From an uncultured Gammaproteobacteria bacterium (GTDB lineage Bacteria; Patescibacteriota; Patescibacteriia; UBA11705): a stretch of 64,000 bases of DNA. Both the position numbers and the translations under genes were made by a program. Location: NCBI GenBank assembly GCA_964592195.1, contig CAZQEI010000003.1, positions 20,174 through 84,173 on the forward strand. Direction: 5' to 3'. Every line of letters begins with the position of its first letter. Position 1 is the first letter of the stretch. Shown here one piece after another: positions 39,869-64,000 of this stretch. Below the pieces are notes generated by a model. That model worked only from the letters and a program-made list of their open reading frames with translations, did no database searches and was not told the origin of the DNA.

Positions 39869-39876
39869 GTGTTTTA

Positions 39877-40848: not shown

Positions 40849-40854
40849 ATTGAG

Positions 40855-47263: not shown

Positions 47264-47267
47264 ATTA

Positions 47268-47450
47268 TTTGTATATACACAGCTGATTTGTTATTGGTAG
47301 AAAGTCACAATTTTAATTTTATACATAATATTCGTAGATTCGTAGCTGATTGGTTATTGGTATAGGAAGTCACAATTTTAATTTTATGCATAATATTCGT
47401 AGATTCGTAGCTGATTTGTTATTGGTAGGAAGCCACAATTTTATAATAGA
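47268..47450. repeat. ~2.7 x 62-bp tandem repeat (AGCTGATTTGTTATTGGTAGAAAGTCACAATTTTAATTTTATACATAATATTCGTAGATTCGT)
   Basis: read directly; contains ATTCGTAGATTCGTAGC motif. Confidence 0.7.
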
Positions 47451-47889: not shown

Positions 47890-48254
47890 ATTTCAAAACT
47901 TATAGAATAAAATTTCATTATTAACCAAGCATGAATCAACGTTGCCACCATTAAAACCACAATATACACAATTTGACTTTTCTTATGCCGAAAAACAATC
48001 ATCCCCAACCACCCGCCAACAAAACCACCGACCAATGATAAACCATTCAAAATTATATTCGGAATTCTTAAGGCTCGACTGGTGGCGGCTAATTTATCGT
48101 AGGCGTAAAAAAAGAAAGTTAACAAACCACTTGTCATTAACCAAACTAAATACAAAGACCATCGCGTATACCACCAAATTCCCAAACCAAAAATCAACGA
48201 TAACGCTACGCTTGCAATTAACCAAAATTTGTATACGTTAAAATGTTTTCTCAT
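47886..48254 (-). CDS. DUF1294-family small membrane protein
   Basis: FFYAYDKLAA...RIPN..L...GG.VGGWLGM.VFRHKK.K motif; 3 TM; 6 nt downstream of family-B paralog 1. Confidence 0.55.
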   Translation of the reverse strand: MRKHFNVYKFWLIASVALSLIFGLGIWWYTRWSLYLVWLMTSGLLTFFFYAYDKLAATSRALRIPNIILNGLSLVGGFVGGWLGMIVFRHKKSQIVYIVVLMVATLIHAWLIMKFYSISFEI

Positions 48255-48260
48255 AATTTT

Positions 48261-49835
48261 CTATTTCTTTGGCGTTGGTAGCTGTATTTGTTTAATGGAA
48301 ATTTTTCCTTTGATACAATCGAGATAAAAATATTTTCCTTTTGAATAAACCACCTTCCAATTTCCAACACTTGGCTGATCACTACGTTTACCATCTATCC
48401 ACAAAAAATTATCATCTACACAACTCCAAAAAACATGTTCCCCCGACGCACAGAACTTTGAGACTTCACCTTTTGGCATTTCAACTTTTACATTATCAAT
48501 ATATAAATAGTTGACCCGATCACTTTTCGGAGTACCCACATCTTCACTAACATAAAACAATGATCCTTTATGACCCAGAACTTCTATTGGTTTTTCTGTA
48601 GAGTAAACTCCGTTAAAATCACCAACAATACGAGTATCATCAACATTAAAACGAACCTCGGAAAAACCGTCACCACAGATGATGTAATCCAAAGTACCAC
48701 CCAAGTGATGTTGCGAAACCATAACCAATCTGCCATTGGATATACTTTTTTTTAATATCAGAGTATCCGGAGGATTCAGTCTTTCTATGTGATGACTACC
48801 TTTGACAAATTTATAAACATCTTGGTAAGCAACTCTACTGCTTTTCTTTCTACTATTTAAAATAAAATAAAGATTATCACCATTTGTAATTATTTCACCA
48901 ATGGTTAAGATATTTCCATCATGTCGATCATGTATCTGTGTCTCAATTAAATTATTCCCTCCAGTTAAATCATTAACAAACACATCATATAATTGTTTTG
49001 AAGGACTAAAAATTGACTGGAGACAACATAAATTCCCATCATAAGTAAAAGGCAAACTAAAATCATCCAATTTCGAATCAGATTCTATCTCGTTATTACC
49101 CAATACCAATTTTCGTCCTTTGTCTTTGCGATTATTACTGACATAAGCCAATCGCCCGTCAACCATTCCGACTTTTTCATATTGTTGTTGATTCTTAGTT
49201 AATAAACTTCCGTCTAAGTCAAGCACCATACCAACATCAATATCTCTATACTTGCCTAAAAAAGCTTTTAACTCATTATTTTCATCGGTCACTGGATTCA
49301 TCGTACCGCTCGGCGTATCGGATAAATTCTCATCCCCAATATGCTTCCCCTCCGCATCAACAATATCACCTCTTAATTGTTGACCTTTATCCAGATATTT
49401 AAAATAAAAGCAGGGACGACCGTTATATATAATCGGTTGACGTTCAACCACTCGTTGATTCCTATCACAAGGAAACTCATTTAAACGTTTTCCATCAATA
49501 TTAATTAACCCCGAAGATTTGCCATCTCTGGTAATCAAATCAAAAAACACTTCATCGTTAACCACAATAAGATCATCAGTCAAATTGGCTGTTTTGAATT
49601 CAGTGCCAGTCAAATCAATGGTGGCTTCATGAATAAATCTGGGCTCAGGAATTATCTCTTCCGTCATCCCTTCCACCTCCCTCAGCAACTCCGTGACAAA
49701 TCTCGGATTACGGGCGCTAAGTCCGGCGGCTTTTCTTTTAGCCACTAATTCGCGCAAACGTTCAGAACGTTCAGCGTAGTTTAATATTTGATCTTTATCT
49801 GTTGAATCCAATGTTAGGCTTAAATACTCACCCAT
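48261..49835 (-). CDS. family-B paralog 1 (N-module + WG-like beta repeats + conserved C-terminus)
   Basis: MGEYLSLTLDSTDKDQILNYAERSERLRELVAKRKAAGLSARNPRFVTELLREVEGM ... LWIDGKRSD..WKVVYSKGKYF. Confidence 0.8.
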   Translation of the reverse strand: MGEYLSLTLDSTDKDQILNYAERSERLRELVAKRKAAGLSARNPRFVTELLREVEGMTEEIIPEPRFIHEATIDLTGTEFKTANLTDDLIVVNDEVFFDLITRDGKSSGLINIDGKRLNEFPCDRNQRVVERQPIIYNGRPCFYFKYLDKGQQLRGDIVDAEGKHIGDENLSDTPSGTMNPVTDENNELKAFLGKYRDIDVGMVLDLDGSLLTKNQQQYEKVGMVDGRLAYVSNNRKDKGRKLVLGNNEIESDSKLDDFSLPFTYDGNLCCLQSIFSPSKQLYDVFVNDLTGGNNLIETQIHDRHDGNILTIGEIITNGDNLYFILNSRKKSSRVAYQDVYKFVKGSHHIERLNPPDTLILKKSISNGRLVMVSQHHLGGTLDYIICGDGFSEVRFNVDDTRIVGDFNGVYSTEKPIEVLGHKGSLFYVSEDVGTPKSDRVNYLYIDNVKVEMPKGEVSKFCASGEHVFWSCVDDNFLWIDGKRSDQPSVGNWKVVYSKGKYFYLDCIKGKISIKQIQLPTPKK

Positions 49836-49837
49836 AT

Positions 49838-51412
49838 TTATATTAAATTTTTTATTTCTCTAATCGAAATCTTTTTGTCTTTGTGACTAATATGAAAATA
49901 TTTTTCTCGTGAATACACCACTTTCCAATCTGCCGGGTAACACGGGAAATCAGTTTTCTTGCCGTCAATCCAAAGGACTCTATTCTCTTTATCCGAGTCA
50001 TCGTCCCAGAAAAAATGTCCATTTACAACATTAAAATTATTAACAATACAGTTTGGAACTTCCACCTTTTCATTATCAATGTATAAATAATTCATACCTC
50101 CGTCCTCTCTTCTTATCATCTCCAAACTCATATAAAATAATGTACCAGTATGTCCCAAAATTTCCACCGGTTTTTCCGTAGAAAAACAGCCGGAGTGGGA
50201 TCCTAACAATTCATCCTGATTTATTTTTACGGGAAATTTGCCTTCCATTCCAATTACATAATCCCAACCTTCCATGGCCATGGATGGTTGTTCGCCGATA
50301 GTTGTAATTCTACCTCCGGATAAAAACATTTTTGCGATTGCATTTTGCTTTACAATTTCCTGCATTATACCATTTGAAAATTTTAGAACAGAATACGCGC
50401 CATCGTCGGTATTTTTATCACTAATATACGCCAAACAGTAAATATTCTCACCATTCACAATAACATTTTCAATTCTTGAAACTTGACCGCCATTGATCCG
50501 ATCTTTAACTTCTCCCACAGTCAGACATTTACTGGTAACCATATCCATCAAAGCAAACTGATGATTATCTGATGATCCATCATAGTGCGAATATATTGCG
50601 TAAACATTGTCACCAACAACAAAAGGCAAGCTGTAATTATCATCCTCATCTACATATTCAATTTTATGCGACCCCCAACAAACTCTTCGACCTCTGTCCT
50701 TTGCCACATACGCCAATTCATCTTTAACTACTGACGCTTTTTCAAAAAAGGCTTCCTTGGTTAAATTTTCACCCTTTAAATCCACAATTCTTTGTATCAT
50801 ACTTTCTCCATCTGACAACAGTCTAGTCTTCACAAAATAACGCAACTCGCCGTTTTCATCCAAGACAGCATCAAAACTATGACTACCTGATTCATCAATA
50901 ATTTTATTCCCACCCGCATGTTCACCGACCGATGTAACAAATTCACCAATTTCATCATCTTCTGTTATTTTATAAAGCAACTTAAAACATGGTTTACCTT
51001 GGTATAAGATGGGTTCATTTTGATTCAGATGAAAACTGGAAGTACAAGGCCTGGGGTTAACAAATTTTTTATCTAATGTCATCACGTCAACCGACTTGCC
51101 GTTTTTAGCATGAACTGTCACAAAAATTTCATCGTTTTGAAAGATTACATCTTGGCCAACCGAGGTTATATATGAATCAATTTCATTCAAATCAATCTCC
51201 GCTTCATGAATAAACATTGATTCATCCAATGTTTCAATCGCCATCCCTTCTACCTCACGCAACAAATCTGCTACATACCTCGGATCATGGGCGCTAAGAC
51301 CGGTGGCTTTTCTGCTTGCCACCAACTCACGCAAACGTTCTGAACGTGCGGCGTAGTTTAAAGTTTGGTCTTTATCTGATGGATCTATAGTTAGACTTAA
51401 ATGCTCTCCCAT
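49838..51412 (-). CDS. family-B paralog 2
   Basis: same N- and C-terminal blocks; 2-nt spacer to neighbour. Confidence 0.8.
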   Translation of the reverse strand: MGEHLSLTIDPSDKDQTLNYAARSERLRELVASRKATGLSAHDPRYVADLLREVEGMAIETLDESMFIHEAEIDLNEIDSYITSVGQDVIFQNDEIFVTVHAKNGKSVDVMTLDKKFVNPRPCTSSFHLNQNEPILYQGKPCFKLLYKITEDDEIGEFVTSVGEHAGGNKIIDESGSHSFDAVLDENGELRYFVKTRLLSDGESMIQRIVDLKGENLTKEAFFEKASVVKDELAYVAKDRGRRVCWGSHKIEYVDEDDNYSLPFVVGDNVYAIYSHYDGSSDNHQFALMDMVTSKCLTVGEVKDRINGGQVSRIENVIVNGENIYCLAYISDKNTDDGAYSVLKFSNGIMQEIVKQNAIAKMFLSGGRITTIGEQPSMAMEGWDYVIGMEGKFPVKINQDELLGSHSGCFSTEKPVEILGHTGTLFYMSLEMIRREDGGMNYLYIDNEKVEVPNCIVNNFNVVNGHFFWDDDSDKENRVLWIDGKKTDFPCYPADWKVVYSREKYFHISHKDKKISIREIKNLI

Positions 51413-51414
51413 AG

Positions 51415-52974
51415 TTATATTAAATTTTTTATTTCTCTAATCGAAATCTTTTTATCTTGATTATTAATGAGAAAATATTTGCCGCGAGAATATACCACCT
51501 TCCAACTTCCAAATTGACACGGTAAATTAGTTTTCTTGCCATCAATCCACAAAGTTCTATTGCCATCATTATCAAGATTATCCCAAAATAAATGATTCCG
51601 CACAACCCTAAATGCCCGGACTTCACAATCAATCATTTCAATCTTATTGTTATCCACATATAAATAATTCACAGAATCACCTTCAACGTTAGTTTCTTCT
51701 GTCATATAGAATAAAGTCCCAGTCTGACCGAATATTTCAATCGGTTGGTCTGTAACAAAAATACCATCTTTCCCATTTAAAATATCTTTATCCTGATTTA
51801 AAGACGCAGTTTCTCCATCTTCTAATTCAATGATTATCATATCGTCTTCATCAATGTGTTGTTCTCGGACTGTTACCAATTTACTTCCAGTTAATGCAAT
51901 TTTTTGTAAAACCCCACCTCCGGTAATTATTTCCATCTTCCCATTCCCAATTTTACAAACAACACAATCAGTTTCACCAAGATTATCGCTATTTAGAACA
52001 CAATAAACTGCGTTACCACAGATTAATACATTTTCAATGGAAATATCATCATCTTCATTCGTACCAGGCAAAATTTCACTACCCGTAGTTTGACCTGTTA
52101 CAATGTCTTTAACACACAAGACATAATGTTCATTTCTTGGATCAAACATTGATTGAATTACGCATATTTGCCCATTAAAATCAAAAGGCAAACTAAAATC
52201 ATCTTTTTCGTGCTGTGATTGAATTTCATTTTTACCCCAAATTATCCGCTTGCGTGATTTATTTGGTAATTTCAATTCATATGCTAACTCGCCTCGAACA
52301 TAGGCAACCCTAGAATATGGAACTATCCCCTCTGGTGAAATTTTGTTTCCATTTAAATCTAAAATCTCTTTCATATCATGTAAACCACCAGCGTTCCGAA
52401 CTCGCATAAAGGCCTTCAATTCCATATTCTCATCCACCACTTCAGTCAACTGGTCTGAGGATGCGAAGACTCCCTGATTAATCGATTTTCCTTGCGAATT
52501 TACAAATTCAATTACTGAATGATCAGACATATCACGATGTTTCATTCTGAAAAATGGAGTTTTATTTACGTAACCACAAAATTCGATTGAGCCCGATATA
52601 CATGGGACATTATTAAGATGAATTCCCTCAATATTTAACAAATGCTCAAACTGGGGGGTGCCGTATTTTTTTACTTTAAAAAATACTTCATCACCAGCTA
52701 CAATCACATCGTTGGAAACACTTGACAATTGAAGATCATTTTCACTCAAATCAATCACCGCTTCATGAATAAACATTGATTCATCCACCGATTCAATCGC
52801 CATCCCTTCTACCTCACGCAACAAATCCGCCACAAATCGCGGATCGCGGGCGCTAAGACCGGCGGCTTTTCTGCTTGCCACTAACTCACGCAAACGTTCT
52901 GAACGTACGGCGTAGTTTAAAGTTTGATCTTTGTCCTTCGGGTCAAGGGTTAATTTTTGTTCGCCAATAGGCAT
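51415..52974 (-). CDS. family-B paralog 3
   Basis: MPIGEQKLTLDPKDKDQTLNYAVRSERLRELVASRKAAGLSARDPRFVADLLREVEGM. Confidence 0.8.
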   Translation of the reverse strand: MPIGEQKLTLDPKDKDQTLNYAVRSERLRELVASRKAAGLSARDPRFVADLLREVEGMAIESVDESMFIHEAVIDLSENDLQLSSVSNDVIVAGDEVFFKVKKYGTPQFEHLLNIEGIHLNNVPCISGSIEFCGYVNKTPFFRMKHRDMSDHSVIEFVNSQGKSINQGVFASSDQLTEVVDENMELKAFMRVRNAGGLHDMKEILDLNGNKISPEGIVPYSRVAYVRGELAYELKLPNKSRKRIIWGKNEIQSQHEKDDFSLPFDFNGQICVIQSMFDPRNEHYVLCVKDIVTGQTTGSEILPGTNEDDDISIENVLICGNAVYCVLNSDNLGETDCVVCKIGNGKMEIITGGGVLQKIALTGSKLVTVREQHIDEDDMIIIELEDGETASLNQDKDILNGKDGIFVTDQPIEIFGQTGTLFYMTEETNVEGDSVNYLYVDNNKIEMIDCEVRAFRVVRNHLFWDNLDNDGNRTLWIDGKKTNLPCQFGSWKVVYSRGKYFLINNQDKKISIREIKNLI

Positions 52975-52976
52975 AC

Positions 52977-54530
52977 TTATATTTTGATTTCACGCACAAT
53001 TAATTTTTGATCTTTCAATCCTAGCATAAAACATTTACCGCCATGAGATACGACTTTCAAAATTTTTTCCGCTGAATATTGCGTTTGTTTACCATCCACC
53101 CAGAGATACGAATCCCCGTCAACAATAGTTCTCGGTCCTGTTGTTCTGGTTTTAGTATATGACCAAAAAACGTGATCTTCAATAACATCAAAATTATCAT
53201 AATTCCCCACAGGTAAATCACTCGATTGATTATCTATCCATAATTTCGGACATTCGCTACCATGGGCATTACTGAGAAAGAATATTTCTCCGGTTTTACC
53301 TTCAATGGTAATAGGTTTATTGGTGTTTTTAATATAACCAGAATCTCCACCACCACCACGGATATGAGTCGTCGCATTTTGTGTTACACCTTCAATATAC
53401 ACTTCAGATTCTTTTTGATTTTCAACATGACTTAAAACCACTAACCGATTATTAAGCAAAAAGAAATCCTCAATTTCTGCGTCTTTAGAACATGGAACAT
53501 CGACTGGTGTAATCTGTTGCCCATCAAATTTAAATAATTTCACAATCCAATCACTATCTTTGTTCACCGAAGCCGTGAAGTATACCGCCTTTTCACCGGC
53601 AATAACTTTCACTATTCGAAAAACATTCCCATCCTCAACATTAATACCGATACCAATATCTCTATCTTGCTGGTCTATAGCCCAAATATAACTTGAGTAC
53701 ATTACCGCATTTGGATCAGAATCATCATTGTCATTATTAGCTTCAATAAATAAAATCTGGTTATTAAAACGAAATGGCATACTGACATTACCTTCCTTTG
53801 TTATATGATTGCCCTTTCTATCCACAAAACCAGAAACACTTTCTCCAGCCCACCTATCACCCCGGTAATACAAAACACCAGATTCATATGAACAATTACA
53901 ATCTTCTAGAAAATCACTTTCAAACCTCCCTGCCATATCCAGCAACCGATAGTTACCACTAACACTTTCATCCTGATCTGGAAAATATTGTCTCACATAA
54001 CCAATCTCGCCAGACTCATCAACTATTACGTTGGGATTATTTTCAAATTTACGAATATCCAAGGAAATTTGTTCTCCTTTTTTATTTAAAAACTTCAATG
54101 CGCCACTGTCCGCATCAGTCAAAGGGAAAATCAATTCGCCTTTATATAAAAAGGTTGAAATAAAAGAACGCGCCGCTGGAAAATCATTTATTGGTTTTCC
54201 TTCAATATCTAAAATTGATTCCTTTTGGTCCTCATTTTTCACCCGCAAAAACAGCTCTCCCTGATTAAAAATTATACACTCGCCGGCTGGACTAAAACCA
54301 TCCAACGGAATATCGACTGAATGAATATATTTTTTATCAAACACCAGCCCATCAGCCATCCCATTCACCTCCCTCAACAAATCCACCACATACCTAGGAT
54401 CATGAGCACTAAGACCAGCGGCTTTATTCCGCGCCACCAATTCGCGCAAACGTTCTGAACGTTCAGCGAAGTTTAAAGTTTGATCTTTGTCATTTGGATC
54501 GAGGGTTAATTTTCGTTCACCAATGGGCAT
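52977..54530 (-). CDS. family-B paralog 4
   Basis: same module. Confidence 0.8.
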   Translation of the reverse strand: MPIGERKLTLDPNDKDQTLNFAERSERLRELVARNKAAGLSAHDPRYVVDLLREVNGMADGLVFDKKYIHSVDIPLDGFSPAGECIIFNQGELFLRVKNEDQKESILDIEGKPINDFPAARSFISTFLYKGELIFPLTDADSGALKFLNKKGEQISLDIRKFENNPNVIVDESGEIGYVRQYFPDQDESVSGNYRLLDMAGRFESDFLEDCNCSYESGVLYYRGDRWAGESVSGFVDRKGNHITKEGNVSMPFRFNNQILFIEANNDNDDSDPNAVMYSSYIWAIDQQDRDIGIGINVEDGNVFRIVKVIAGEKAVYFTASVNKDSDWIVKLFKFDGQQITPVDVPCSKDAEIEDFFLLNNRLVVLSHVENQKESEVYIEGVTQNATTHIRGGGGDSGYIKNTNKPITIEGKTGEIFFLSNAHGSECPKLWIDNQSSDLPVGNYDNFDVIEDHVFWSYTKTRTTGPRTIVDGDSYLWVDGKQTQYSAEKILKVVSHGGKCFMLGLKDQKLIVREIKI

Positions 54531-54532
54531 AA

Positions 54533-56098
54533 TTATATTTTAATTTCACGAACAATTATTTTTGCATACCCTTTATTTTTTTCTTTACCAATAAAATAGT
54601 ATTTATCATTTACAAAAACCACTTTCAAAATATCATTCGACTGATATTGCGTCGGCTGACCATCGATCCATAGAGACGACACCCTATGTTTCCCGGGATT
54701 TAATTTTTTATTTTCAGCTTTGGGAATTTTATGCGCCCAAAACATATGGTCATTGACACTAGCCGAATAAGTAATTTCACCTGCTGGAAAATCTTGCGGC
54801 TCACCATCGACCCACAAAGTTATTTTTTCTCCATCAACGGTCAAAAAAAACACTTTACCGGTATGCCCCATCACAGTTCTTTCATCTTCAAAAGCAAATA
54901 TTTCTCCACATGGTTTATCTGTGGGACTGCCGAGTTTAACTTTTCCTAAATTGTGTAAATAGTAAAAAAATCCTTTACCAGGAAGATACCCGGTATAGAC
55001 CACTTGCCCATTAACCATCCTAAAATCCACAAAATCACTATTCCTGGGAATTTTACGATTTTTTTCATTTAGAATTTCAATATGTGTACCGTCAAAATGA
55101 AACAATAAAACACCATTTTGTGAACTATTTCTCCAACCTTTAGTTTTAATAGTAAAACACACATCCTTGCCATTCACAATAACATTTGAAGGCACAGCGA
55201 CTTCTGAAACATGAAAATTAAAATACGTAAAATTTATATTTCCAAAATTTTCGATCGATACCTTTGAATTTTCAACTTGAATACAAAAATGTTCACCTGA
55301 CTTTCCATACTTAAATGGAATACTTACATTTTCACCTCGTACGTTTTGTTTTTCCCCTCTACCAAGTACATTATAACCAGCCTCATCCTTACCTTTTTTG
55401 TACTGTCCACTCCAAGTCAAAGTATTATCCTTTTCCATTACAAAAGTATAATCAGTCAACCACTCTGTTATAGGCTCCTTGTTCAAATTTATTGCACGGG
55501 CTGTCAACTGCGCATCACCATTGACTGTTTGTTCCAATAAAGCACATAGATTGCCATCATCATCAGTCATTAATTCATATCTTTTATAATCAGAAGCTTC
55601 ACCTTTAAACAATATTTCCTCACCATTCAAATTTACAAATCTAGATGGATTCTCATCTGAAGCGTGAAAAACATCAAACTTTACTCCAAGCTGACCATTC
55701 AATTTAAACGTTTCTATAGGGAAATCGGGCAAAGGTTCTTTATTTATCATCTCGCCTGACAAGCGGCAAACATCCATGCCTTGTTTATCTTGTCTTGGAA
55801 GAGTGAACAAAACTTGATCACCAATCAAATGCACATCGCTTGATTTTACTTTGTTTAATTTATATCCAGGTAATTCCAAATCTTTTTCACAAAGTTCATT
55901 TTTATCCGGCGCCAATTCGACCGCCATGCCTTCAACTTCTTTTAACAAATCCACCACATATCTCGGATCATGGGCGCTAAGTCCGGCGGCTTTTCTTTTG
56001 GCCACCAATTCGCGCAAACGTTCTGAACGCTCGGCGTAATTTAAAGCTTTATCTTTGTCGTTCGGGTCAAGGGTTAATTTTTGTTCATTGAAAGGCAT
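54533..56098 (-). CDS. family-B paralog 5
   Basis: same module. Confidence 0.8.
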   Translation of the reverse strand: MPFNEQKLTLDPNDKDKALNYAERSERLRELVAKRKAAGLSAHDPRYVVDLLKEVEGMAVELAPDKNELCEKDLELPGYKLNKVKSSDVHLIGDQVLFTLPRQDKQGMDVCRLSGEMINKEPLPDFPIETFKLNGQLGVKFDVFHASDENPSRFVNLNGEEILFKGEASDYKRYELMTDDDGNLCALLEQTVNGDAQLTARAINLNKEPITEWLTDYTFVMEKDNTLTWSGQYKKGKDEAGYNVLGRGEKQNVRGENVSIPFKYGKSGEHFCIQVENSKVSIENFGNINFTYFNFHVSEVAVPSNVIVNGKDVCFTIKTKGWRNSSQNGVLLFHFDGTHIEILNEKNRKIPRNSDFVDFRMVNGQVVYTGYLPGKGFFYYLHNLGKVKLGSPTDKPCGEIFAFEDERTVMGHTGKVFFLTVDGEKITLWVDGEPQDFPAGEITYSASVNDHMFWAHKIPKAENKKLNPGKHRVSSLWIDGQPTQYQSNDILKVVFVNDKYYFIGKEKNKGYAKIIVREIKI

Positions 56099-56101
56099 AA
56101 A

Positions 56102-57661
56102 TTAAACTACTATTTCTTTTATCACTAATTTCGTACCCACCAAACCAATCATGAAATATTTATTTTCCGTATAAATAAACTTTAAAATTTTATCAGCACA
56201 ATACTTGGTTTTCTGACCATCGAGCCAAACATACTCTGTTTTATCTTGTACTTTCTTTTTATCAGGCTCTTTCTCAATAAATTCCCGAAAGCCCCAGAAT
56301 AAATGATCCTTGAGGACTATTTTGTTAGAGAAGACACCGAAAGGCAACACCACAGATTGATTTTCTATCCAAAATTGATAATCACCTTCATCTTTATGAC
56401 TACCAAAGAAAAATACTTCACCGGTTTTGCCCAAAACATTCACCGGTTTAGAAGTTTTCAAAATATTCTCTTCACTTTGATCCAGATCAAGCCCGGCTTT
56501 AAAGACTTCAAAAGGTTCAGGCAAACCATCTATATGAATATATTCTTTGTCAGTATCAATTGAAAGGTAATGAACCATCAAACGATTATTCACCATGGTA
56601 AACCCATTCATCACGCAGTTTTCCGGTCCAGTCACTTCCTTAATAGTTTGTCCATCAAATTTAAATAACTTCTCTCCTTGCTCCAATGAATCAGGCATAT
56701 GAATAGTGGCGGTAAAATATCCGACATCATTTCCTGCAACCACTTTTTTTATATTAATAACATTTGATCGCTCTAATCCCAACCATGGTGTGCCAATTTC
56801 TTTACCGGCATCATTGACTAAAGATAATTTCGCCACTTTGGCTTTTGATTTCTTTCGGTATTTTTCTTTCGCTTCTATAAAACAAAACTTACCATTATAT
56901 TTAAATGGTAGACTAACCATCCCCTCCATAAACGCCCTCTCTCCATCATGAGAAATATAGCCGCAAATATTATCTCGATTATATTCTCCTTGATAAGTAA
57001 TATAGCCTGGCTCCACTTGATACTGGAACTGCTCTATAAAAGCCGTCAATTCTTCATTATTCAAATCATTTATAGTACTAAAACTAAAACCATCTTCATC
57101 ATCTACATGATCGACGACAAAATAACGTAAGTCACCATTTTCATCTGCCAACGGATCAATAATTTGCGACCTTGAGAATTTATCGAACTCAATCTGTTTG
57201 CCTTGTGAATTTATATACTTAACGTCACCATCGTTTCGGCTACGAACTTTAAAACATGTTTGTCCCCCCCAACGAAAGGGTTTGGCAGAAACATCTGAAC
57301 ATTGAAACTTTACAATGCCCTCATTATCAATATTAACAATATCCTCTGATCCAATATTATGTCTAACTTTAATAAATAATTCTCCATTTAATAACCCGAT
57401 ATCCTCCCCCAAGATTCTTTGAGCAGTAAAATCGTTAATCTCAATTTCTGTTTCAAAAACTTTTGGTTCTTTGGGCTCCAAATCTTTATTCAACCCTTCC
57501 ACTTCCCGCAACAAATCTGCCACATAATTTGGATCACGAGCGCTAAGACCAGCGGCTTTTCTTTTGGCCACCAATTCACGCAAACGTTCTGAACGTTCAG
57601 CGTAATTTAATCCTTGCTCTTTATCTGCCGGATCAAGAGTTAATTGTATTTTTTCACCCAT
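56102..57661 (-). CDS. family-B paralog 6
   Basis: ORF 56102..57670; family-consistent start is MGEKIQLTLDP (57661), 1 nt after upstream stop. Confidence 0.8.
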   Translation of the reverse strand: MGEKIQLTLDPADKEQGLNYAERSERLRELVAKRKAAGLSARDPNYVADLLREVEGLNKDLEPKEPKVFETEIEINDFTAQRILGEDIGLLNGELFIKVRHNIGSEDIVNIDNEGIVKFQCSDVSAKPFRWGGQTCFKVRSRNDGDVKYINSQGKQIEFDKFSRSQIIDPLADENGDLRYFVVDHVDDEDGFSFSTINDLNNEELTAFIEQFQYQVEPGYITYQGEYNRDNICGYISHDGERAFMEGMVSLPFKYNGKFCFIEAKEKYRKKSKAKVAKLSLVNDAGKEIGTPWLGLERSNVINIKKVVAGNDVGYFTATIHMPDSLEQGEKLFKFDGQTIKEVTGPENCVMNGFTMVNNRLMVHYLSIDTDKEYIHIDGLPEPFEVFKAGLDLDQSEENILKTSKPVNVLGKTGEVFFFGSHKDEGDYQFWIENQSVVLPFGVFSNKIVLKDHLFWGFREFIEKEPDKKKVQDKTEYVWLDGQKTKYCADKILKFIYTENKYFMIGLVGTKLVIKEIVV

Positions 57662-57662
57662 A

Positions 57663-59234
57663 TTAAACATCCAATGCTTTGACTATTAATTTATTATAAA
57701 GCACCGCCACCACAAAATATTTATTATTTGAATAAACCACTTTTAATATTTTATCATATTTTCCTTTCATTTGCTTGCCATCCATATACAATTTTTCACC
57801 GCCAAAATCCAACTGGTCATTCCAAAACAGATGATCATTTACCACGCAAAACATATTGCAAGTCAAAGCGCTATCTTTCTCCAGATCAATCGGAGAGTTA
57901 TCAACAAACAGTGTTTCTCTATTTTCCAGATTCCTCGCCATATAGAAAATTGATCCTTGCTGGCCAAAAATTTCAATTGGTTTGCTGGTAGTATAGATTT
58001 GATGAAACTCAACCATGCCAACTGGAGCATGTTCGCCAACAATGGCGTTCACTGTTTGTTCGCCCAGGCCATCAATTACAATTTTTCGTTTCCTTTTACC
58101 ATCCACATGAACATACGCAACCACCGATAACCGACCTCCGATTTCATGCAAATTCATTGAACGTGCTTCTGTTATTCGAGTAGGTTCAAATTTACCAAAT
58201 TTAAACATGTAAGCATTCGGATACCCAGGATCACCCAACGAATCCCTACACACCACTTTCACTAAACACTTATCTCCCGAGGCGACCACCTGACTGATAG
58301 AACTGATCTCATCATGTAAAGGCTGAGCCAGAGTAACAGCTTCTTTGGTTTGAATATCTCTTATAACTATTTGGTCTGCCCCATCAATACTCTTGTGGCA
58401 ACAAACGCAAACCTTACCATTAAACAGAAAAGGTGCGCTTAACTTCTGTTCATTATGTGTTTCTATTCTATCATCACCCCAAACAGCTGATTGACCATCA
58501 GTAAAATTTAAACCATTATTCGCCAAATATGCCCACTTTCCTTCTAACACAACGGAATTACGAAGTTCTATTTCTTCGTTCGTCACAGCCTCACCATTCA
58601 AGTTGAAAATTTGTCCGGATTGATTACCAATCTCATTAATCGTTTTTACTTTATTAAAACCTAAAATATCTTTGTCATTTTCCAGCACCTCCTCGATAAA
58701 GTCACCGGCGCCGGCCTTTAAATTTTCATCTCCGATAAATTCTCCATGATGGTTGATAAAAGCATCAATCATTTCACCTTCTGAATCATAATAACGCAAT
58801 TTGAAACATATTTTCCCCTGATAAAAAATCGGTTTATCTATACCAGTAATACCGTAATTTTTTAATGCGGGATGGGGGTTTATTGGTTTGCCGTCAATAT
58901 TTAATAAATGAGCAGATTCGCCATCTTTAGATTGGACACGAACAAACAGTTCGTCTTGTTGACAAAATACGCTGTTAATATTTAGTTCCGCTTGATTGTA
59001 TTCGCTTAAATCAAAACTCGTTTCATGCACCAGCTCCAATAGGTTAATCGAAGAAATATTCATAGCCGCCACTTCTCGTAATAAAGAAGCAACGTAAGCC
59101 GGATCCTTTGCATCCAAGCCAGAAGCCTTTCTTTCTTTTACCAACTCACGCAAACGTTCAGAACGATCAGCATAATTCAAAGACTGTTCTTTATTGTTTG
59201 GATCGAGGGTTAATTTTCGTTCTGTAAAAGGCAT
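57663..59234 (-). CDS. family-B paralog 7
   Basis: same module. Confidence 0.8.
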   Translation of the reverse strand: MPFTERKLTLDPNNKEQSLNYADRSERLRELVKERKASGLDAKDPAYVASLLREVAAMNISSINLLELVHETSFDLSEYNQAELNINSVFCQQDELFVRVQSKDGESAHLLNIDGKPINPHPALKNYGITGIDKPIFYQGKICFKLRYYDSEGEMIDAFINHHGEFIGDENLKAGAGDFIEEVLENDKDILGFNKVKTINEIGNQSGQIFNLNGEAVTNEEIELRNSVVLEGKWAYLANNGLNFTDGQSAVWGDDRIETHNEQKLSAPFLFNGKVCVCCHKSIDGADQIVIRDIQTKEAVTLAQPLHDEISSISQVVASGDKCLVKVVCRDSLGDPGYPNAYMFKFGKFEPTRITEARSMNLHEIGGRLSVVAYVHVDGKRKRKIVIDGLGEQTVNAIVGEHAPVGMVEFHQIYTTSKPIEIFGQQGSIFYMARNLENRETLFVDNSPIDLEKDSALTCNMFCVVNDHLFWNDQLDFGGEKLYMDGKQMKGKYDKILKVVYSNNKYFVVAVLYNKLIVKALDV

Positions 59235-59236
59235 AG

Positions 59237-60802
59237 TTAAAAAGTAATTTCACGCACCACTAACTGTTCACCCTCTCTCGCAACCACATAATAAATCCCA
59301 TTTTCTTCCACCACTTTCAGAATATAATCAAACTCATATTTCGATTTCACGCCGTCAATATATAAAGATGTTCTACTTCTTGTTCTGTCATCAATCCAAC
59401 TGGACTGACCATGAAACAATACATCATTAACAATATCAAAATAGGTAAAGTGTGGACCTCTCTTAGTCTCTCCCAAGGAAACTTTTTCATTATCAATCAC
59501 TAAGAACGGTTCAAAGCGACCTTCGTCAATGTAAAATACTTGCCCTGTTTTTCCCAAGACAGTTTTTGGTTTTTGGGTGCTTAAAATTTTACTCAACGCC
59601 AATTTCTCACTTCTAATCGGTGTCCCCATGCCGATGGAAACAGAGTATCCCACCACAGTATTTTTACCATTGCGTTCCTGTCTTAATTCCTTTGTTTGGA
59701 TTAATTTACCAGCCGTAACTTGAATATCAGCTAATATTGTATCCTTATTATCAGGAATAACTGATATAGTGTCGGTAAGAACATCCGCAACAGTGATAGC
59801 TCTCCGACCATTTAAATCAGACGCAATCATATATATTTTCGAATCGACCACGCTAATTGAATTGACATCCTTAAGTCTATAAGCATTAATACACTTGGCT
59901 AAAGTTTCTTTGGTAACTAAATCAATAATCTCAAAAGTCCCGCCTTTATCAAAATCATAGTGCCACTTTGCCACCACCACTTTATCTTGGACAACAAACG
60001 GATGACTCATGTTGCCTGCTTTTAATTCCTGATTTGACAGGGAAATTTTATTATCTCCCCAGACTGCTACTTTTTCTGGAGATCCACTTTGGGTATAACC
60101 CGTATAAGCTAATTGATCTTTTATCACTTCCCATTTTTCCAAGGCTAAAAATTCTGTAGTTATTGGTCGATGATTCAAATCATAAATTTTTCCCACGCGA
60201 TGCGAGCTATCAATCTCCGTAGCCTCGCCTAAATATCGCAGTTCGTTTTTCTCATCCAATACAGGTAATAAAATCATTTTATCACTACCTTTGGATGGCA
60301 AACCAAGGCTTTCACCATTTTCATCGACAATTTCCTCTAGAACTTCACCCTGCTTATTTTCATATTTGAACCGAAAAGCAATCTTACCATTGTAAAAAAA
60401 CGGCTTTTTGAATCTCGGATCATAGCTAGTATTTAAATGTTGTTTATTTACCACTTTTCGATCAATGTCAATCAGATCAACCACACTATGTCGACCATTC
60501 GGATGCAAGCCGAAAAATAACTTCCCGCCAACCAGATGGGCATCATAGTCCCGTAAGTCATAAGGACTATAGCCGTCGAGATCAATCGTTGCTTCTCGAA
60601 TGAACTGAGGTTTTTCCGCTTCAGTTCCGCTGAAATTTTCCAATTCATGAAGCACCTCTGCCACATGTCTCGGATCGCGGGCACTAAGACCGGCGGCTTT
60701 CTGTCTAGCCACCATGTCACGCAACCGCTCAGACATCTCAGCGTAATTGAGTGAACGCTGTGTGTCTCGAGGATCAATGGTTAAATTTATATTTTCTCCC
60801 AT
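59237..60802 (-). CDS. family-B paralog 8
   Basis: MGENINLTIDPRDTQRSLNYAEMSERLRDMVARQKAAGLSARDPRHV. Confidence 0.8.
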   Translation of the reverse strand: MGENINLTIDPRDTQRSLNYAEMSERLRDMVARQKAAGLSARDPRHVAEVLHELENFSGTEAEKPQFIREATIDLDGYSPYDLRDYDAHLVGGKLFFGLHPNGRHSVVDLIDIDRKVVNKQHLNTSYDPRFKKPFFYNGKIAFRFKYENKQGEVLEEIVDENGESLGLPSKGSDKMILLPVLDEKNELRYLGEATEIDSSHRVGKIYDLNHRPITTEFLALEKWEVIKDQLAYTGYTQSGSPEKVAVWGDNKISLSNQELKAGNMSHPFVVQDKVVVAKWHYDFDKGGTFEIIDLVTKETLAKCINAYRLKDVNSISVVDSKIYMIASDLNGRRAITVADVLTDTISVIPDNKDTILADIQVTAGKLIQTKELRQERNGKNTVVGYSVSIGMGTPIRSEKLALSKILSTQKPKTVLGKTGQVFYIDEGRFEPFLVIDNEKVSLGETKRGPHFTYFDIVNDVLFHGQSSWIDDRTRSRTSLYIDGVKSKYEFDYILKVVEENGIYYVVAREGEQLVVREITF

Positions 60803-60835
60803 ATTTAATCAATTGAAATATCTCCGCCTAAGGCG

Positions 60836-60872
60836 CCTGCCTGCCGGCAGGCAGGGATCAGCCTCCGGCTGA
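60836..60872. repeat. composite GC palindrome CCTGCCTGCCGGCAGGCAGG + GATCAGCCTCCGGCTGA
   Basis: only >10-nt spacer inside the family-B array; same modules at 29586-29612, 25352-25398, 3737-3768. Confidence 0.7.
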
Positions 60873-62351
60873 AAATGTGCCGAAATATCCGTTTCTTTTA
60901 CCCAACATTAAATATTTCCCATCTTGAAAAACCACACTTTTTATATCATCGCAAAAATACTGAGTTCTCACACCATCCACATACAAATAGCAATCTTTTT
61001 CACCATTCAAAGTCTCACCCCAGATTACGTGGTTATTTAGCGTTAAGAAAAAAGAAACTTCCCCATCCGGCAATAACCGAGGTTCATTATCCACCCACAA
61101 AGTATTTTTCGATTCATTATTGGTTAAATAAAATATTTGACCGGTAGCACCTAAAACAGTAATTGGATTATCCACAGAATAAATACACTCATCCCCAATA
61201 AAATTTCTAGCTGCCATCCGAGACTTCCCTCCAATGCTGACTTTAGCTGTATCCCTATCAGGACCAAACCAATCTTGTTGAACCACCACTAATTTACCCG
61301 CCACGACATCAAAGTAATCAATGCTTGACTCGCTACATTCAAAATCCAACTTGGAAATATTACTACCATCATAACAATATATCATTGGCTGATCACCACG
61401 ACCATCAGCGCCAGCTCCTGCCCAAATATAAATTTTGTCACCATACACAACCGTCTTTCTAATTTCAGTTATTTTTGGTAACTGTAACGCGATATTATCA
61501 CTCAAAACTTTCTCAGATCGCATGTTAACCAAAGCAATCCCAGTGGCATTATTATCTGGGTTAAAAAAACTACGACAAACCACGGGTTGACTTTGATAAT
61601 AAAAGGGTAAACCAAATTTATAATATTTAACATCAGCCGTCACTTGAGAGTTTCCTAATCGCGCCACCCACAATTCTCCCCAGACACCATGATAAGCCAG
61701 GACTCCATCCACCAACTTGGCTTCTTTCACCATATCAACCGTACTTGAAGCTAGTTGCCCATCCAACTCCAAGACTTCCCCCGCATAGCCACCACCATTT
61801 GGTTGAACATCATTTTTAAAGACATATTTTATTACGCCATTTTCATCTTTTAAAAAATCCAAGAATCGATATCTTTCATCTGATTTTACCTCAGGTAATA
61901 TTTTATCACCGTTTTCATCAATCAAATAGCTACCACTTTTCCCACCAGCGACCACGCTATAACACACATGAAAATCATGCAAACCTACTGTTTCAAACGG
62001 TAATATACTATTTTCTTTGTTCAGTCTTTTTCCCTCAGCATCTAATAAAACATAGGATTTATCCACAAAACTTCTCCCAGAGATGAATAATTTACCCGCA
62101 ACAACCTTGGCTTTATTAAAAACAAAACCATCACTTTCAATTATATTTTTCATGGCTGGTCCTTGGGGAATTAAATAGTCCAATTTGGAAACCTCGTCCA
62201 ACAATTTTTTCACATATGCCGGATTATTTCGCCCTTTACCCTTATTTTCCGCCACTATTTCACGTAAACGCTCAGAAGTATCAACAAAACTTCCAGGTTC
62301 TTTTTCATCCTTCTTATCAAACGTTAAATTAAATTTTACACCTTCTCCCAT
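60858..62351 (-). CDS. family-B paralog 9 (divergent N-module)
   Basis: MGEGVKFNLTFDKKDEK...TSERLREIVAENKGKG; C-terminus LYVDGVRTQYFCDDIKSVVFQDGKY. Confidence 0.75.
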   Translation of the reverse strand: MGEGVKFNLTFDKKDEKEPGSFVDTSERLREIVAENKGKGRNNPAYVKKLLDEVSKLDYLIPQGPAMKNIIESDGFVFNKAKVVAGKLFISGRSFVDKSYVLLDAEGKRLNKENSILPFETVGLHDFHVCYSVVAGGKSGSYLIDENGDKILPEVKSDERYRFLDFLKDENGVIKYVFKNDVQPNGGGYAGEVLELDGQLASSTVDMVKEAKLVDGVLAYHGVWGELWVARLGNSQVTADVKYYKFGLPFYYQSQPVVCRSFFNPDNNATGIALVNMRSEKVLSDNIALQLPKITEIRKTVVYGDKIYIWAGAGADGRGDQPMIYCYDGSNISKLDFECSESSIDYFDVVAGKLVVVQQDWFGPDRDTAKVSIGGKSRMAARNFIGDECIYSVDNPITVLGATGQIFYLTNNESKNTLWVDNEPRLLPDGEVSFFLTLNNHVIWGETLNGEKDCYLYVDGVRTQYFCDDIKSVVFQDGKYLMLGKRNGYFGTFSAGG

Positions 62352-62356
62352 ATTAT

Positions 62357-63976
62357 TTATATTTTAATCTCACGCACGACCATATCCGTGCCATTTACTG
62401 CCACCACAAAATATTTACCTTCGTGAAAGACCACTTTGAGGATTTTATCATACACATATATAGATGGCGTTCCGTCTATCACCAAACGCGACTCTTCCTT
62501 TCTAAATTTGCCACTTCCCACTACTTTGTAATGATTCCAAAACAACACATCATTGGCAATATCAAACATCGTTATCTGTCCATTAAGCACTACATCACCT
62601 AACAAAATCGGGTCATCATCAACCATCAACCATACATTCCCCATATCAATACCAATATGAAATATTTGCCCCACCGACCCAAGCACTTCCTTGGGTTTAT
62701 CGGTGGCAAGAACTTTTGCTCCAATAATTTTATCAGACTGAAGTTCTGTCTTCCCGTCAATTTGGACACCATATCTGGGAGGTAAACCGCCATCCCGAGA
62801 ATACCGAATAAAATAGACCATCTCTCCGGCAATTTTTTGAATATCGGAAACCTCAGTCTTCTCATCTTTTAACATCAAATGATGACTTTTTTGGCCTTCG
62901 ATTATCAATACCATTTTTTGTCCATCTCTGGTCACATGTACATATACCTTATCATCCACTACTTCATATTTATGAATTTCCGTAATGGAAGATTTCTCAC
63001 TGTCATTGTCATGCAATACTTCACTGGTTTCAATATCTATTACTTGGGTATTCCCCATGTCAAAACTTTGATCAAAACCGGTTCTAATAAAACATTTTCT
63101 GCCGTTCCACAAAAAGACGCCACTGAAAACCAGTTGATCTAATTTATTCAATTCATCGGATGATGAATATTTGTGCGAACCGCAAACTACCTGTATATTT
63201 CCAGCCGTATCTTCCGATAGATAACTAAGTTGACCATCAACTATACGTGAAAAGGTGATATGCTGGTTACTATCAGTTACTGGGTTACCGTCAGGAGTAA
63301 ATAACTGACCATAATCTTTTCCGCCTTCAGAAACTAACGAGGTCCCGCAACAAACCAAATTTCTTTTATCATCGAGAACTTTCAATAGCACTTTAAAGTC
63401 ATCATTACTATTTGGCAATCCGACGTCTTTACCTTTTTCATTTACAAACAGACTAGCAACACCATCGTGTTTATCGACATAACCAAACTGAAAAATTAAT
63501 TGATTTTTATAATAAAATGGTCGCCTGCCAAATCCGAAGCCAACACTATGGCATGGATATTTATTAATACTCTCACCGGAAATGTTTTTTAGAGTATGTT
63601 CGTTCATGCCTGTATCACGCAAATCAAAAAACAGTTTTCCATCCATAAATTCAACGCAAGATTCATTGATACCACTGACCTCATAATCTGAAATATCAAA
63701 AGTTGAGTCTCGAATTATATTATCCTCTGCCCCAGATTCCAAACATTCAGCGGTTCGATTGACCAATAACAAAGCCAGACTAACATCTTCAGGCGTAAAT
63801 CTACCCTTGGATTTTATTTGCAGTGATAGCTCATGCAATTGCTCGAAGTTGTCAACTAAACTTCGTCCGGTTTCACGATCGCCTGCCATTAACTTTCCAG
63901 AGGCACTATTAAAACTACCGGCAGATTTTTGATCCTCGTTTCCTGATGCTAAATTAAACTGACCGCCTTCTCCCAT
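62357..63976 (-). CDS. family-B paralog 10 (most divergent N-terminus)
   Basis: MGEGGQFNL...; C-terminus LVIDGTPSIYVYDKILKVVFHEGKYFVVAVNGTDMVVREIKI. Confidence 0.75.
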   Translation of the reverse strand: MGEGGQFNLASGNEDQKSAGSFNSASGKLMAGDRETGRSLVDNFEQLHELSLQIKSKGRFTPEDVSLALLLVNRTAECLESGAEDNIIRDSTFDISDYEVSGINESCVEFMDGKLFFDLRDTGMNEHTLKNISGESINKYPCHSVGFGFGRRPFYYKNQLIFQFGYVDKHDGVASLFVNEKGKDVGLPNSNDDFKVLLKVLDDKRNLVCCGTSLVSEGGKDYGQLFTPDGNPVTDSNQHITFSRIVDGQLSYLSEDTAGNIQVVCGSHKYSSSDELNKLDQLVFSGVFLWNGRKCFIRTGFDQSFDMGNTQVIDIETSEVLHDNDSEKSSITEIHKYEVVDDKVYVHVTRDGQKMVLIIEGQKSHHLMLKDEKTEVSDIQKIAGEMVYFIRYSRDGGLPPRYGVQIDGKTELQSDKIIGAKVLATDKPKEVLGSVGQIFHIGIDMGNVWLMVDDDPILLGDVVLNGQITMFDIANDVLFWNHYKVVGSGKFRKEESRLVIDGTPSIYVYDKILKVVFHEGKYFVVAVNGTDMVVREIKI

Positions 63977-64000
63977 ATTTATTAAACTTTAATTTCCTTC

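Follow-up and report, generated by a model that had tools for sequence, protein, structure and literature searches.

The window, a 64,000-nucleotide stretch of a 126,086-bp Patescibacteria (CPR) contig, carried at its end a head-to-tail array of minus-strand genes, here called family A, in which a short N-terminal module (N-module) precedes a repeat-type body (Table 1). The initial annotation had described ten ORFs of 497-542 aa; ten intact ORFs were indeed found, and the longest of them encoded 539 aa rather than 542. The claimed layout, a co-oriented and tightly packed single string of genes with junctions of 1-5 nt and one 55-nt spacer holding a palindrome, was reproduced in the ORF and junction map, where stop-to-ATG gaps from copy 1 upward were 2, 2, 2, 2, 3, 1, 2, 55 and 5 nt. 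The 1-nt gap at the copy 6/7 junction turns into an 8-nt overlap, depending on the start of copy 6. All ten copies possessed the N-module (a divergent variant in copy 10), and comparison of the copies bore out a variable, beta-rich middle between this module and a conserved C-terminal block, the latter being present in every copy except copy 9. Further copies had been expected past the window end, and the last 24 nt held the KEIKV codons and stop of copy 11 followed by TAAAT-ATG, with copy 12 on the same contig. P0009 (526 aa, C-terminus MVVKEIKV) and P0010 (519 aa) are these extra copies, which brings the array to 12 members or more. Ten uninterrupted ORFs of ~520 codons in DNA of 37% GC, with family profile scores of 534-651 bits, are not due to chance.

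Table 1 Genes and other features of the window, numbered from its first nucleotide
Feature	Position	Strand	Evidence or remark
Pyr_excise/Pdg, pyrimidine-dimer DNA glycosylase-like	47458..47889	-	Pfam; 4-nt overlap with DUF1294 gene
DUF1294 small membrane protein	47886..48254	-	Pfam; 6 nt downstream of copy 1
Family A copy 1, 524 aa	48261..49835	-	ORF; N-module + predicted roughly 10-bladed beta-propeller; modelled copy
N-module example (copy 1, codons 1-58)	49662..49835	-	Predicted helices at residues 17-36, 44-57
Family A copy 2, 524 aa	49838..51412	-	ORF, family profile
Family A copy 3, 519 aa	51415..52974	-	ORF
Family A copy 4, 517 aa	52977..54530	-	ORF, family profile
Family A copy 5, 521 aa	54533..56098	-	ORF, family profile
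Family A copy 6, 522 aa from first ATG	56102..57670	-	First ATG gives 8-nt overlap with copy 7
Copy 6 alternative start (MGEK), 519 aa	ATG 57659-57661		Matches public annotation P0003
Family A copy 7, 523 aa	57663..59234	-	ORF, family profile
Family A copy 8, 521 aa	59237..60802	-	ORF, family profile
55-nt spacer	60803..60857	-	Between copies 8 and 9; palindrome CCTGCCTGCCGGCAGGCAGG
REP-like GC palindrome	60836-60855	within spacer	Identical copy at 29593-29612
Family A copy 9, 497 aa	60858..62351	-	ORF
Family A copy 10, 539 aa	62357..63976	-	Variant N-module common to copies 10, 11, 12
Copy 11, final codons and stop	63982..64000	-	P0009, 526 aa
Family B copy 1, 340 aa	37867..38889	-	N-module + unrelated alpha/beta body
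Family B copy 2, 323 aa	38897..39868	-	N-module profile
Family B copy 3, 323 aa	39877..40848	-	N-module profile
Family B copy 4, 321 aa	40855..41820	-	Directly downstream of Wzy_C/O-antigen-ligase-like gene (41822-43219)

With at least 12 co-oriented genes joined by stop-NN-ATG junctions, the array would most likely be a single long operon with closely coupled translation. Promoter-like and terminator-like sites inside it showed no excess over shuffle expectation, and one polycistron across the packed genes is plausible. A DUF1294 gene and a Pdg-like gene, reported earlier as following the array co-directionally, were both identified by Pfam, and the former is probably co-transcribed with the array. 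Its proposed role as a dedicated membrane partner found no support beyond adjacency; a second array carrying the N-module (family B, 37867-41820) has no adjoining DUF1294 gene. No candidate partner gene, whether for secretion, a protease or another function, was visible in the 64-kb window, nor were Esx core genes (EssC/EccC) or T4SS genes. Shine-Dalgarno motifs are lacking genome-wide (found in 7 of 45 genes), and their absence was rejected as a peculiarity of the array. An alternative genetic code was rejected because TGA serves as a stop elsewhere, and a DNA-inversion or phase-variation switch because no relevant inverted repeats occurred in or around the array. Rfam yielded no structured RNAs, and no tRNA genes were found.

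The 55-nt spacer arose when a REP-like palindrome, a dispersed repeat, inserted here and cut copy 9 short. Beyond the palindrome, the spacer still holds what is left of the original C-terminus and junction (GGDISID and a stop codon, then AT-ATG), and copy 9, which ends in TGA, is devoid of the C-terminal VREIKI motif. A role of the palindrome as an array-specific regulatory element was rejected, since it is a dispersed repeat with a second copy at 29593-29612. Copy 9 may be in decay, since an independent SRA assembly carries a nonsense allele of it, E35* (window 62249 G>T).

The body of family A was predicted to be a beta-propeller of roughly ten blades. Structure prediction of one member had been suggested as a check of a propeller fold, and the AF2 model of copy 1 (pLDDT 81, pTM 0.76; about pLDDT 60 in the N-module part) was a toroid of repeated antiparallel blades, each radial and four-stranded, repeating every ~45 aa. 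This model matched generic propellers only, and its predicted fold class is that of multi-bladed propellers such as the DPP4/POP N-domains, 9-bladed eIF3b/eIF2A and the 10-bladed Vps10p domain of sortilin. The bodies resemble WG/KWG proteins in their beta-hairpin repeats with motifs of the phi-x-phi-D-x-x-G-K/E-x-phi type, but they gave no match to WG_beta_rep, KWG or other Pfam repeat models at E<=1. The membership in WG/KWG repeats raised in the initial annotation was thus not supported, with no Pfam WG or KWG model at that threshold in the ten copies, and P0009 and P0010 were also negative. Family A proteins were predicted to be soluble and acidic. No signal peptide, lipobox, TM segment, known anchor or other positive sign of export was detected in the 16 proteins analysed (maximum 19-residue Kyte-Doolittle mean <=1.22), which have 1-10 cysteines each; their N-termini are charged, with no space for upstream extension. 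Classification as Sec-dependent surface proteins or lipoproteins was rejected because signal peptide and lipobox were lacking.

The N-module, of ~55 aa and with the consensus LTLDPxDxxxxxxYAExSERLRELVxxxKAxGLSxxxPxxVxxLLxEVE, opens every gene of families A and B, and within the window its profile found 14 carrier proteins and no others. The modules of the two families were linked by hmmsearch (E 1.5e-4 to 3e-3, aligned residues 3-58) and, in the comparison of family A with family B, by hhalign (probability 92%, E 5.7e-7, alignment from residue 1 in both), which are moderate statistics over about 55 residues. P0015, a beta-rich protein of 603 aa encoded on the same contig, also has the module (hhalign probability 94%, E 1.5e-7). 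The presence of the same module on family A, the unrelated family B and P0015 makes it a portable handle. This sharing was absent from the earlier reading of the sequence. A PDB profile search with the N-module gave generic designed helical proteins only. The family B array sits inside a cell-envelope glycan cluster: its neighbours are Wzy_C, GT4, GHL15/FG-GAP and DUF11 envelope genes, two GT4 glycosyltransferase genes coming after the array. The structural model of family B was poor (pLDDT 56).

Pairwise identity among the family A copies was 21-43% at the amino acid level, with saturated synonymous sites, and DNA-level similarity was confined to ~170 nt at the 5' ends. In the bodies, pS was about 0.7 and pN about 0.55, and even copies 1-3, the youngest subcluster, shared a body identity of 33-37%. 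The copies are old paralogs. The N-module is under strong purifying selection, with pN of 0.07-0.19 vs pS of 0.36-0.65 in copies 1-6 (pN/pS about 0.25-0.3). Within the propeller, conservation was seen in the first blades and over the final ~110 residues, the middle blades were hypervariable and indels were concentrated in loops, while structural glycines, aromatics and closure blades were kept across copies. Active gene conversion or homogenisation was rejected, as exact shared tracts measured just 17-39 nt and module pS still reached 0.36-0.65.

Searches of Pfam, NCBIfam, PADLOC and PHROGs returned nothing meaningful for family A (no Pfam match at E<=1 in the ten copies; in PHROGs, isolated weak matches to families without annotation), and family B, P0009, P0010 and P0015 had no meaningful HMM-library matches either. 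In PADLOC, the ten family A copies, family B, P0009 and P0015 were without a match, and the single match, of P0010, was insignificant (E 0.0017, 15.7 bits). Searching PDB sequences with the family A, family B and N-module profiles produced nothing but noise (SpoIIE E 0.04; designed helical bundles), and BFVD structures gave generic Kelch/WD40 matches with TM <= 0.32. When the family A profile was run against 5.8e9 proteins in a word-indexed search, only the window copies came back; an exhaustive search of 1.84e9 representative proteins added P0009, P0010 and P0015, all from the same contig, together with weak repeat-level matches to unrelated propeller proteins. Among the 1.84 billion representative proteins, full-length family A occurs only on a single 126-kb Patescibacteria contig. 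The N-module alone retrieved one 34-aa fragment from the same organism and nothing else. No relatives were found in GTDB representative genomes or IMG/VR viral contigs, and JGI metagenomes contained a single 2.5-kb landfill contig with family-B-like tandem genes and nothing else. The best DnaK match of the host genome was 76%, to Ca. Falkowbacteria (CPR). The array is a lineage-specific multigene family of a Patescibacteria chromosome; as all the evidence comes from one contig, it provides no cross-species conservation argument for function. Neither this orphan status on one CPR contig nor the REP-like origin of the spacer had been noticed in the earlier reading.

Several known classes were set aside. 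Phage receptor-binding or tail proteins did not fit, given weak PHROG matches, BFVD TM <= 0.32 and no IMG/VR relatives; no significant PADLOC component match pointed to a known anti-phage defence system; and a polymorphic toxin/immunity locus, with a C-terminal toxin domain and a small immunity gene beside it, did not fit either, since the junctions, at 1-5 nt, are too short to hold interleaved genes and the predicted propeller bodies matched no toxin domain.

Among characterised systems, the Parachlamydiaceae NEX/PEX families are tandem-expanded F-box/BTB-plus-repeat effectors that include a 13-member tandem array (PMC4209131). Family A resembles them as a large lineage-specific expansion in a host-dependent bacterium, with a short conserved N-module joined to a variable repeat-type binding domain and no need of a classical signal peptide; however, its N-module belongs to none of the F-box, BTB and RING domain types (no match in Pfam), its body is a predicted propeller whereas theirs is an LRR, and no T3SS was evident. 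CPR bacteria are believed to live on prokaryotic hosts, which have no ubiquitin system. In Esx/T7SS substrates (LXG/WXG100) and other polymorphic effectors, an N-terminal alpha-helical domain likewise sits on diverse bodies as the handle of one machinery, without a Sec signal, as a general feature (PMC13622651). The present module differs in having ~55 aa and two predicted helices rather than 110-180 aa and in showing no LXG/WXG100 HMM match; interleaved small helical partner or immunity genes are missing, no Esx genes lie in the window, and the bodies are predicted propellers, not toxins. VirB2 pilin arrays of Patescibacteria are divergent and tandem, with 2-11 genes of about 25% identity (PMC12102498), and thus belong to the same phylum as family A, are likewise head-to-tail strings of strongly diverged paralogs and, like family A, presumably serve in cell-cell interaction. 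Yet VirB2 proteins are small hydrophobic T4SS-linked pilins, whereas family A comprises soluble predicted propellers of 520 aa with no TM segment and no T4SS genes nearby.

We tentatively favour the reading that the array encodes a set of variable binders that are transcribed together, with the handle plugging each of them into one common partner, for example a machinery for export or anchoring or a hub. The sequences and the model show the gene anatomy, the fold class, the modular nature of the handle, the orphan distribution and the deep divergence; co-transcription, docking, location in the cell and ligands are inferred. The conserved first and last blades should adjoin at ring closure, beside the N-module, and the variable propeller sector would offer alternative binding specificities. 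The handle would dock every carrier protein onto a single common partner, for which Sec-independent export, loading or anchoring machinery is the likeliest candidate and an intracellular hub the other. The outcome would be a standing set of binders for host cells or other antagonists. Precedents exist both for secretion handles made of a conserved helical domain at the N-terminus (PMC13622651) and for divergent tandem arrays, in Patescibacteria (PMC12102498) and in symbionts (PMC4209131). A bolder proposal, which we regard as quite unlikely, is that a CPR-specific, Sec-independent route of delivery or display uses the module as a hitherto unrecognised, sequence-conserved N-terminal signal for export or loading, with the propellers, family B and P0015 as a cargo repertoire that sets which hosts the epibiont attaches to or manipulates.

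The same anatomy could belong to a cytoplasmic adaptor or sensor family, in which the N-module recruits a shared hub (protease, nuclease or other effector) and each propeller its own target (phage, host-derived or self), in functional analogy to F-box-WD40 or BTB-Kelch substrate receptors or to the propeller sensors of conflict systems. We consider this rather unlikely. Acidic proteins with cysteines and without signal peptide or TM helix would suit it, propellers are typically protein-interaction platforms, BTB-Kelch proteins were among the BFVD structural matches, and orphan status with rapid divergence suits conflict genes; however, no F-box, BTB or other known adaptor domain, no PADLOC match and, within the window, no hub candidate was found, and handle-bearing family B, lying in an envelope-glycan cluster, points outward rather than inward. 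Poly-immunity loci of polymorphic-toxin systems typically consist of tandem, divergent, signal-less, lineage-specific paralogs, and the strong divergence of the copies would agree with an antidote array whose inhibitors each neutralise a different toxin from competitors or hosts. Such an array is very unlikely here: known immunity arrays are usually mixtures of small, heterogeneous families, whereas these proteins are large (~520 aa), with one architecture and a conserved handle; no toxin gene or toxin domain adjoins them, and the handle on the unrelated family B body would be left unexplained.

Neutral or selfish tandem duplication of one orphan gene, leaving a largely non-functional expansion now in decay, would account for the truncation of copy 9 by the REP-like insertion and for its nonsense allele in the second assembly, and no homologs elsewhere demonstrate long-term retention. 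This is nevertheless very unlikely, as twelve ORFs of ~520 codons are intact despite saturated synonymous sites, the N-module keeps its low pN/pS, and structural glycines, aromatics and closure blades are conserved; moreover, 19 kb of junk would hardly survive in a reduced CPR genome. The initial annotation had also raised the case of a single gene expanded by the assembly. Spurious expansion or mis-joining, for which we found no supporting point, is effectively refuted: assemblers cannot make copies as diverged as these (21-43% identity), and a Logan contig from an independent assembly (SRR12261225) spans the copy 10/copy 9 junction with 1111/1112 identity.

CPR/Patescibacteria genomes are very small, and to our knowledge the ways in which these bacteria recognise and exploit their hosts are largely unknown. 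The array takes about 19 kb, which is 15% of the 126-kb contig and ~2% of a typical CPR genome of ~1 Mb, and it encodes at least 12 deeply diverged, intact binding-type proteins that have no counterpart elsewhere among about 15 billion public proteins. Should the handle serve in targeting or docking, it would give an experimental way into a CPR-specific interaction or secretion pathway, and cargo of that pathway could be recognised by a sequence rule. Should the proteins act inside the cell, they would parallel, in a bacterium, the modular families of substrate receptors. Either way, the array is an example of large lineage-specific innovation in a reduced genome.

The minus-strand array of family A was filled by ten uninterrupted ORFs (copies 1 to 10, copy 10 nearest the window edge). 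Their stop-to-ATG junctions measured 2, 2, 2, 2, 3, 1, 2 and 5 nt, the 1-nt junction alternatively being an 8-nt overlap according to the copy 6 start chosen, and a single 55-nt spacer lay between copies 9 and 8. The initial annotation had described such an array, with a palindrome in the long spacer and DUF1294 and Pdg-like genes close downstream, and these features were confirmed. Its suspicion of more copies past the window end also proved correct. The last 24 nt encode ...KEIKV* followed by TAAAT-ATG, the family A C-terminal motif and junction, and exhaustive protein search recovered P0009 (copy 11; 526 aa, C-terminus MVVKEIKV) and P0010 (copy 12; 519 aa), both encoded on the same 126,086-bp NCBI contig and both with the variant form of the N-module, the ~55-aa two-helix N-terminus of these proteins, seen in copy 10. 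This brings the array to 12 members or more.

Near-identical copies would be expected from a collapsed or expanded repeat, whereas pairwise protein identity within family A was 21-43% and neighbouring copies were similar in DNA only over the first ~170 nt (copies 2 and 3 also at the 3' end). Moreover, a 1112-bp Logan contig, an independent assembly of SRR12261225, matched the window at 1111 of 1112 positions and crossed the copy 10/copy 9 junction. The array is thus a real, unusual feature and not an assembly artefact. Nor is it a compositional island, since at 36-40% GC it does not differ from the genome. Plus-strand GC skew was -0.25 to -0.32 over 48001-64000 and mostly -0.05 to -0.2 in the rest of the window, the more negative values over the array arising because the coding strand is G-rich in all paralogs. 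Internal promoter-like and terminator-like sites did not exceed shuffle expectation, which is compatible with, though not proof of, one long operon. Shine-Dalgarno-like motifs preceded only 7 of 45 genes in the window, and upstream regions were A/T-rich; their absence from the array is not special because they are rare genome-wide, and translation in this genome seems to be initiated mostly without Shine-Dalgarno pairing.

Family A had no match in Pfam, NCBIfam or PADLOC, none meaningful in PHROGs, and no relative in PDB by sequence; with no Pfam match, the suggested WG/KWG membership was not supported. AlphaFold2, run on an alignment of the ten paralogs only, gave a confident model (pLDDT 81, pTM 0.76) with 38 strands in an all-beta body, preceded by a low-confidence N-terminal helix pair (residues 17-36 and 44-57). 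The structural matches were generic propellers, a fold for which the initial annotation had proposed a test: DPP4/POP-type N-domains, 9-bladed eIF3b and eIF2A, large-virus BTB-Kelch and WD40 proteins and, with the best TM-score (0.45), the 10-bladed sortilin Vps10p domain. Profile self-alignment revealed internal repeats at offsets of ~45 and ~130 aa, so that ~450 aa at ~45 aa per blade correspond to roughly 10 blades. Identity across copies was near-even between strands (23%) and loops (20%), with indels mostly in loops. Variation peaked in the middle blades (residues ~240-405; 5-20% identity), and conservation was highest in the last ~110 residues (30-50%) and in the first blades. Because first and last blades adjoin in a closed propeller, the conserved sector would be expected to lie beside the N-module and across from the hypervariable sector. 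No hydrophobic segment was present in any of the proteins examined (highest Kyte-Doolittle mean over 19 residues ≤1.22), and junctions of 1-5 nt are too short to hide an unannotated signal peptide. The proteins are acidic (pI 4.8-6.0), with 1-10 cysteines each. Elsewhere in the window, a BNR/Sortilin-Vps10-type propeller protein is unrelated to the array and was not matched as a family A member.

A search of every window ORF with the family A profile gave weak but specific matches to three of the four adjacent ORFs of a second tandem family, family B, with profile positions 3-58 aligning to their extreme N-terminus. This N-terminus is near-invariant in family B (MPENIQNLTLPxxSPVAHTYAEVSSRLHxIVKSNNGKPPSPEQVKxMLxQLERL), and the alpha/beta body is unrelated to the family A propeller. 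Profile-profile comparison of the two families gave 92% probability (E 5.7e-7), from residue 1 in both. P0015, a 603-aa protein of the same contig, shares the N-module and first strands with family A (94%, E 1.5e-7); beyond these, its beta-rich body could not be aligned. A profile of the N-module alone retrieved exactly 14 window proteins, the family A and B ORFs. The N-module is therefore a portable N-terminal unit, found on two different bodies at a minimum and probably on three. Family B has a Wzy_C-type gene on one side and a pair of GT4 glycosyltransferases on the other, with genes for a GHL15/FG-GAP and a DUF11 protein beyond the latter, and its neighbourhood is thus a cell-envelope one. 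The DUF1294 protein, proposed earlier as a membrane partner, is linked to family A by adjacency only, and the module-bearing family B array has no DUF1294 neighbour.

Among 1.84e9 representatives, the family A profile found members from this contig only, other matches reflecting repeat-level similarity to unrelated propeller-like proteins; no relative was found in GTDB representative genomes or in IMG/VR. Family B had one outside relative, P0021, from JGI 3300014204, a municipal-landfill metagenome (PMC9723747). The landfill contig Ga0172381_10089425 (2568 bp) carries three family-B-body paralogs head-to-tail with 12-14 nt junctions, so B-type tandem arrays occur in at least one other organism. 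Their N-terminus is longer and coiled-coil, and may be a divergent N-module. The N-module-only profile found nothing further in protein search, where sensitivity is limited at 55 residues.

In the body of family A, pS (~0.65-0.75) and pN (~0.5-0.6) were both saturated, and the duplicates are therefore old. For the N-module of copies 1-6, pN was 0.07-0.19 and pS 0.36-0.65, values indicating strong purifying selection with modest homogenisation at most. Exact tracts shared between copies were 17-39 nt. Relatedness clusters ({1,2,3}, {4,6}, {8,10,11,12}) were only partly positional (Spearman rho -0.19, permutation p 0.07). Copy 9 alone is not intact: its C-terminal strand, ...VREIKI, is missing. 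In the spacer that follows this copy lies a 20-nt GC palindrome, CCTGCCTGCCGGCAGGCAGG, identical to a second site; both are intergenic, likeness ends at the palindrome, and none is expected by chance, so CCTGCCTGCCGGCAGGCAGG looks like a REP-like dispersed element. Next to it comes GGDISID*-AT-ATG, which seems to be the ancestral copy 9 C-terminus and junction; the copy 9 3' end was thus interrupted by insertion of a small REP-like element. The sole difference in the SRR12261225 contig, G>T, turns copy 9 codon 35 into a stop; either a nonsense allele in the population or a sequencing error could account for it. The insertion and this allele suggest that copy 9 is decaying.

Positions of features within the window
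Feature	Position	Strand	Description
Family A array	48261-63976	minus	ten ORFs, 497-539 aa
DUF1294 gene			downstream of array, 6-nt gap
Pyr_excise/Pdg-like gene			downstream of array, 4-nt overlap
Family B	37867-41820	minus	four ORFs, 321-340 aa, 31-37% identity, 6-8 nt junctions
CCTGCCTGCCGGCAGGCAGG, spacer after copy 9	60836-60855		
CCTGCCTGCCGGCAGGCAGG, second site	29593-29612		
SRR12261225 contig match	61563-62674		
Copy 9 G>T	62249		
BNR/Sortilin-Vps10-type protein	13118-14182	minus	354 aa, amid housekeeping genes
Cysteine-rich repeat protein	43523-45904	minus	793 aa; 63% GC island (genome 37%)
Sole plus-strand gene of its region	46179-46673	plus	164 aa; sole strong SD motif (AAGGAGG)
PD-(D/E)XK_3 (GxxExxY-type) gene	46841-47263		between the inverted repeats
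34-nt inverted repeats	46695-46728/47395-47428		94% complementary
PD-(D/E)XK_3 gene region	46684-47428		flanking tandem direct repeats, 81 nt x2 and 65 nt x3, TACGAAT/ATTCGTA-rich
Short tandem repeats	36584-36689		ACGAAT/TCGTAA-rich, upstream of GT4 gene

The window is bacterial chromosome, encoding MurJ, AckA, RRF, HolB, MreB, HrcA-GrpE-DnaK-DnaJ, Dus, a class II tRNA synthetase and many glycosyltransferases, with the standard genetic code. Among 185k species genomes searched, the best DnaK match (76%) was Ca. Falkowbacteria, followed by Kuenen-, Magasanik-, Uhr- and Komeilibacteria, all Patescibacteria/CPR. Several other features were observed. The 793-aa protein, with a lipoprotein-type signal (MKLSVFALLAVLVLALAGC), a Pfam Dicty_CTDC match (E 8e-9) and no NCBIfam match, may be a surface protein gained by horizontal transfer. 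The PD-(D/E)XK_3 gene region might form a small mobile cassette or act as a regulatory repeat. ACGAAT/TCGTAA-rich repeats are also present in the 25 nt before several other genes, perhaps as a promoter or regulatory motif used across the genome. The 164-aa product had no family match; inspection by eye shows a segment duplicated within it (…W H S/V L F … W A P … F, twice).

Taken together, family A comprises old, intact, strongly diverged propeller genes, tightly packed and co-oriented, orphan in a CPR genome, and its conserved, portable two-helix N-module occurs in carriers without a classical export signal. The N-module would tie every carrier to a single shared partner, and alternative binding specificities would come from the variable sector of the propeller; the polycistron of variable binding proteins proposed in the initial annotation is reasonable. 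CPR bacteria have an epibiotic lifestyle. For this reason, and because of the envelope-gene context of family B and existing precedents, we favour a role of the N-module in targeting or docking for Sec-independent export, loading or surface attachment. N-terminal helical handles are known on secreted substrates (PMC13622651), and Patescibacteria and symbionts are known to have divergent tandem arrays (PMC12102498, PMC4209131). The 64-kb window, however, shows no secretion machinery. The chief alternative is a family of intracellular adaptors or sensors docked onto a cytoplasmic hub. A poly-immunity array and neutral expansion are both less likely explanations of these genes. Family A is a new, orphan, modular multigene family of one genome, and is best classed under a known theme, that of a conserved N-terminal handle joined to a variable repeat domain and tandemly expanded in a host-dependent bacterium.
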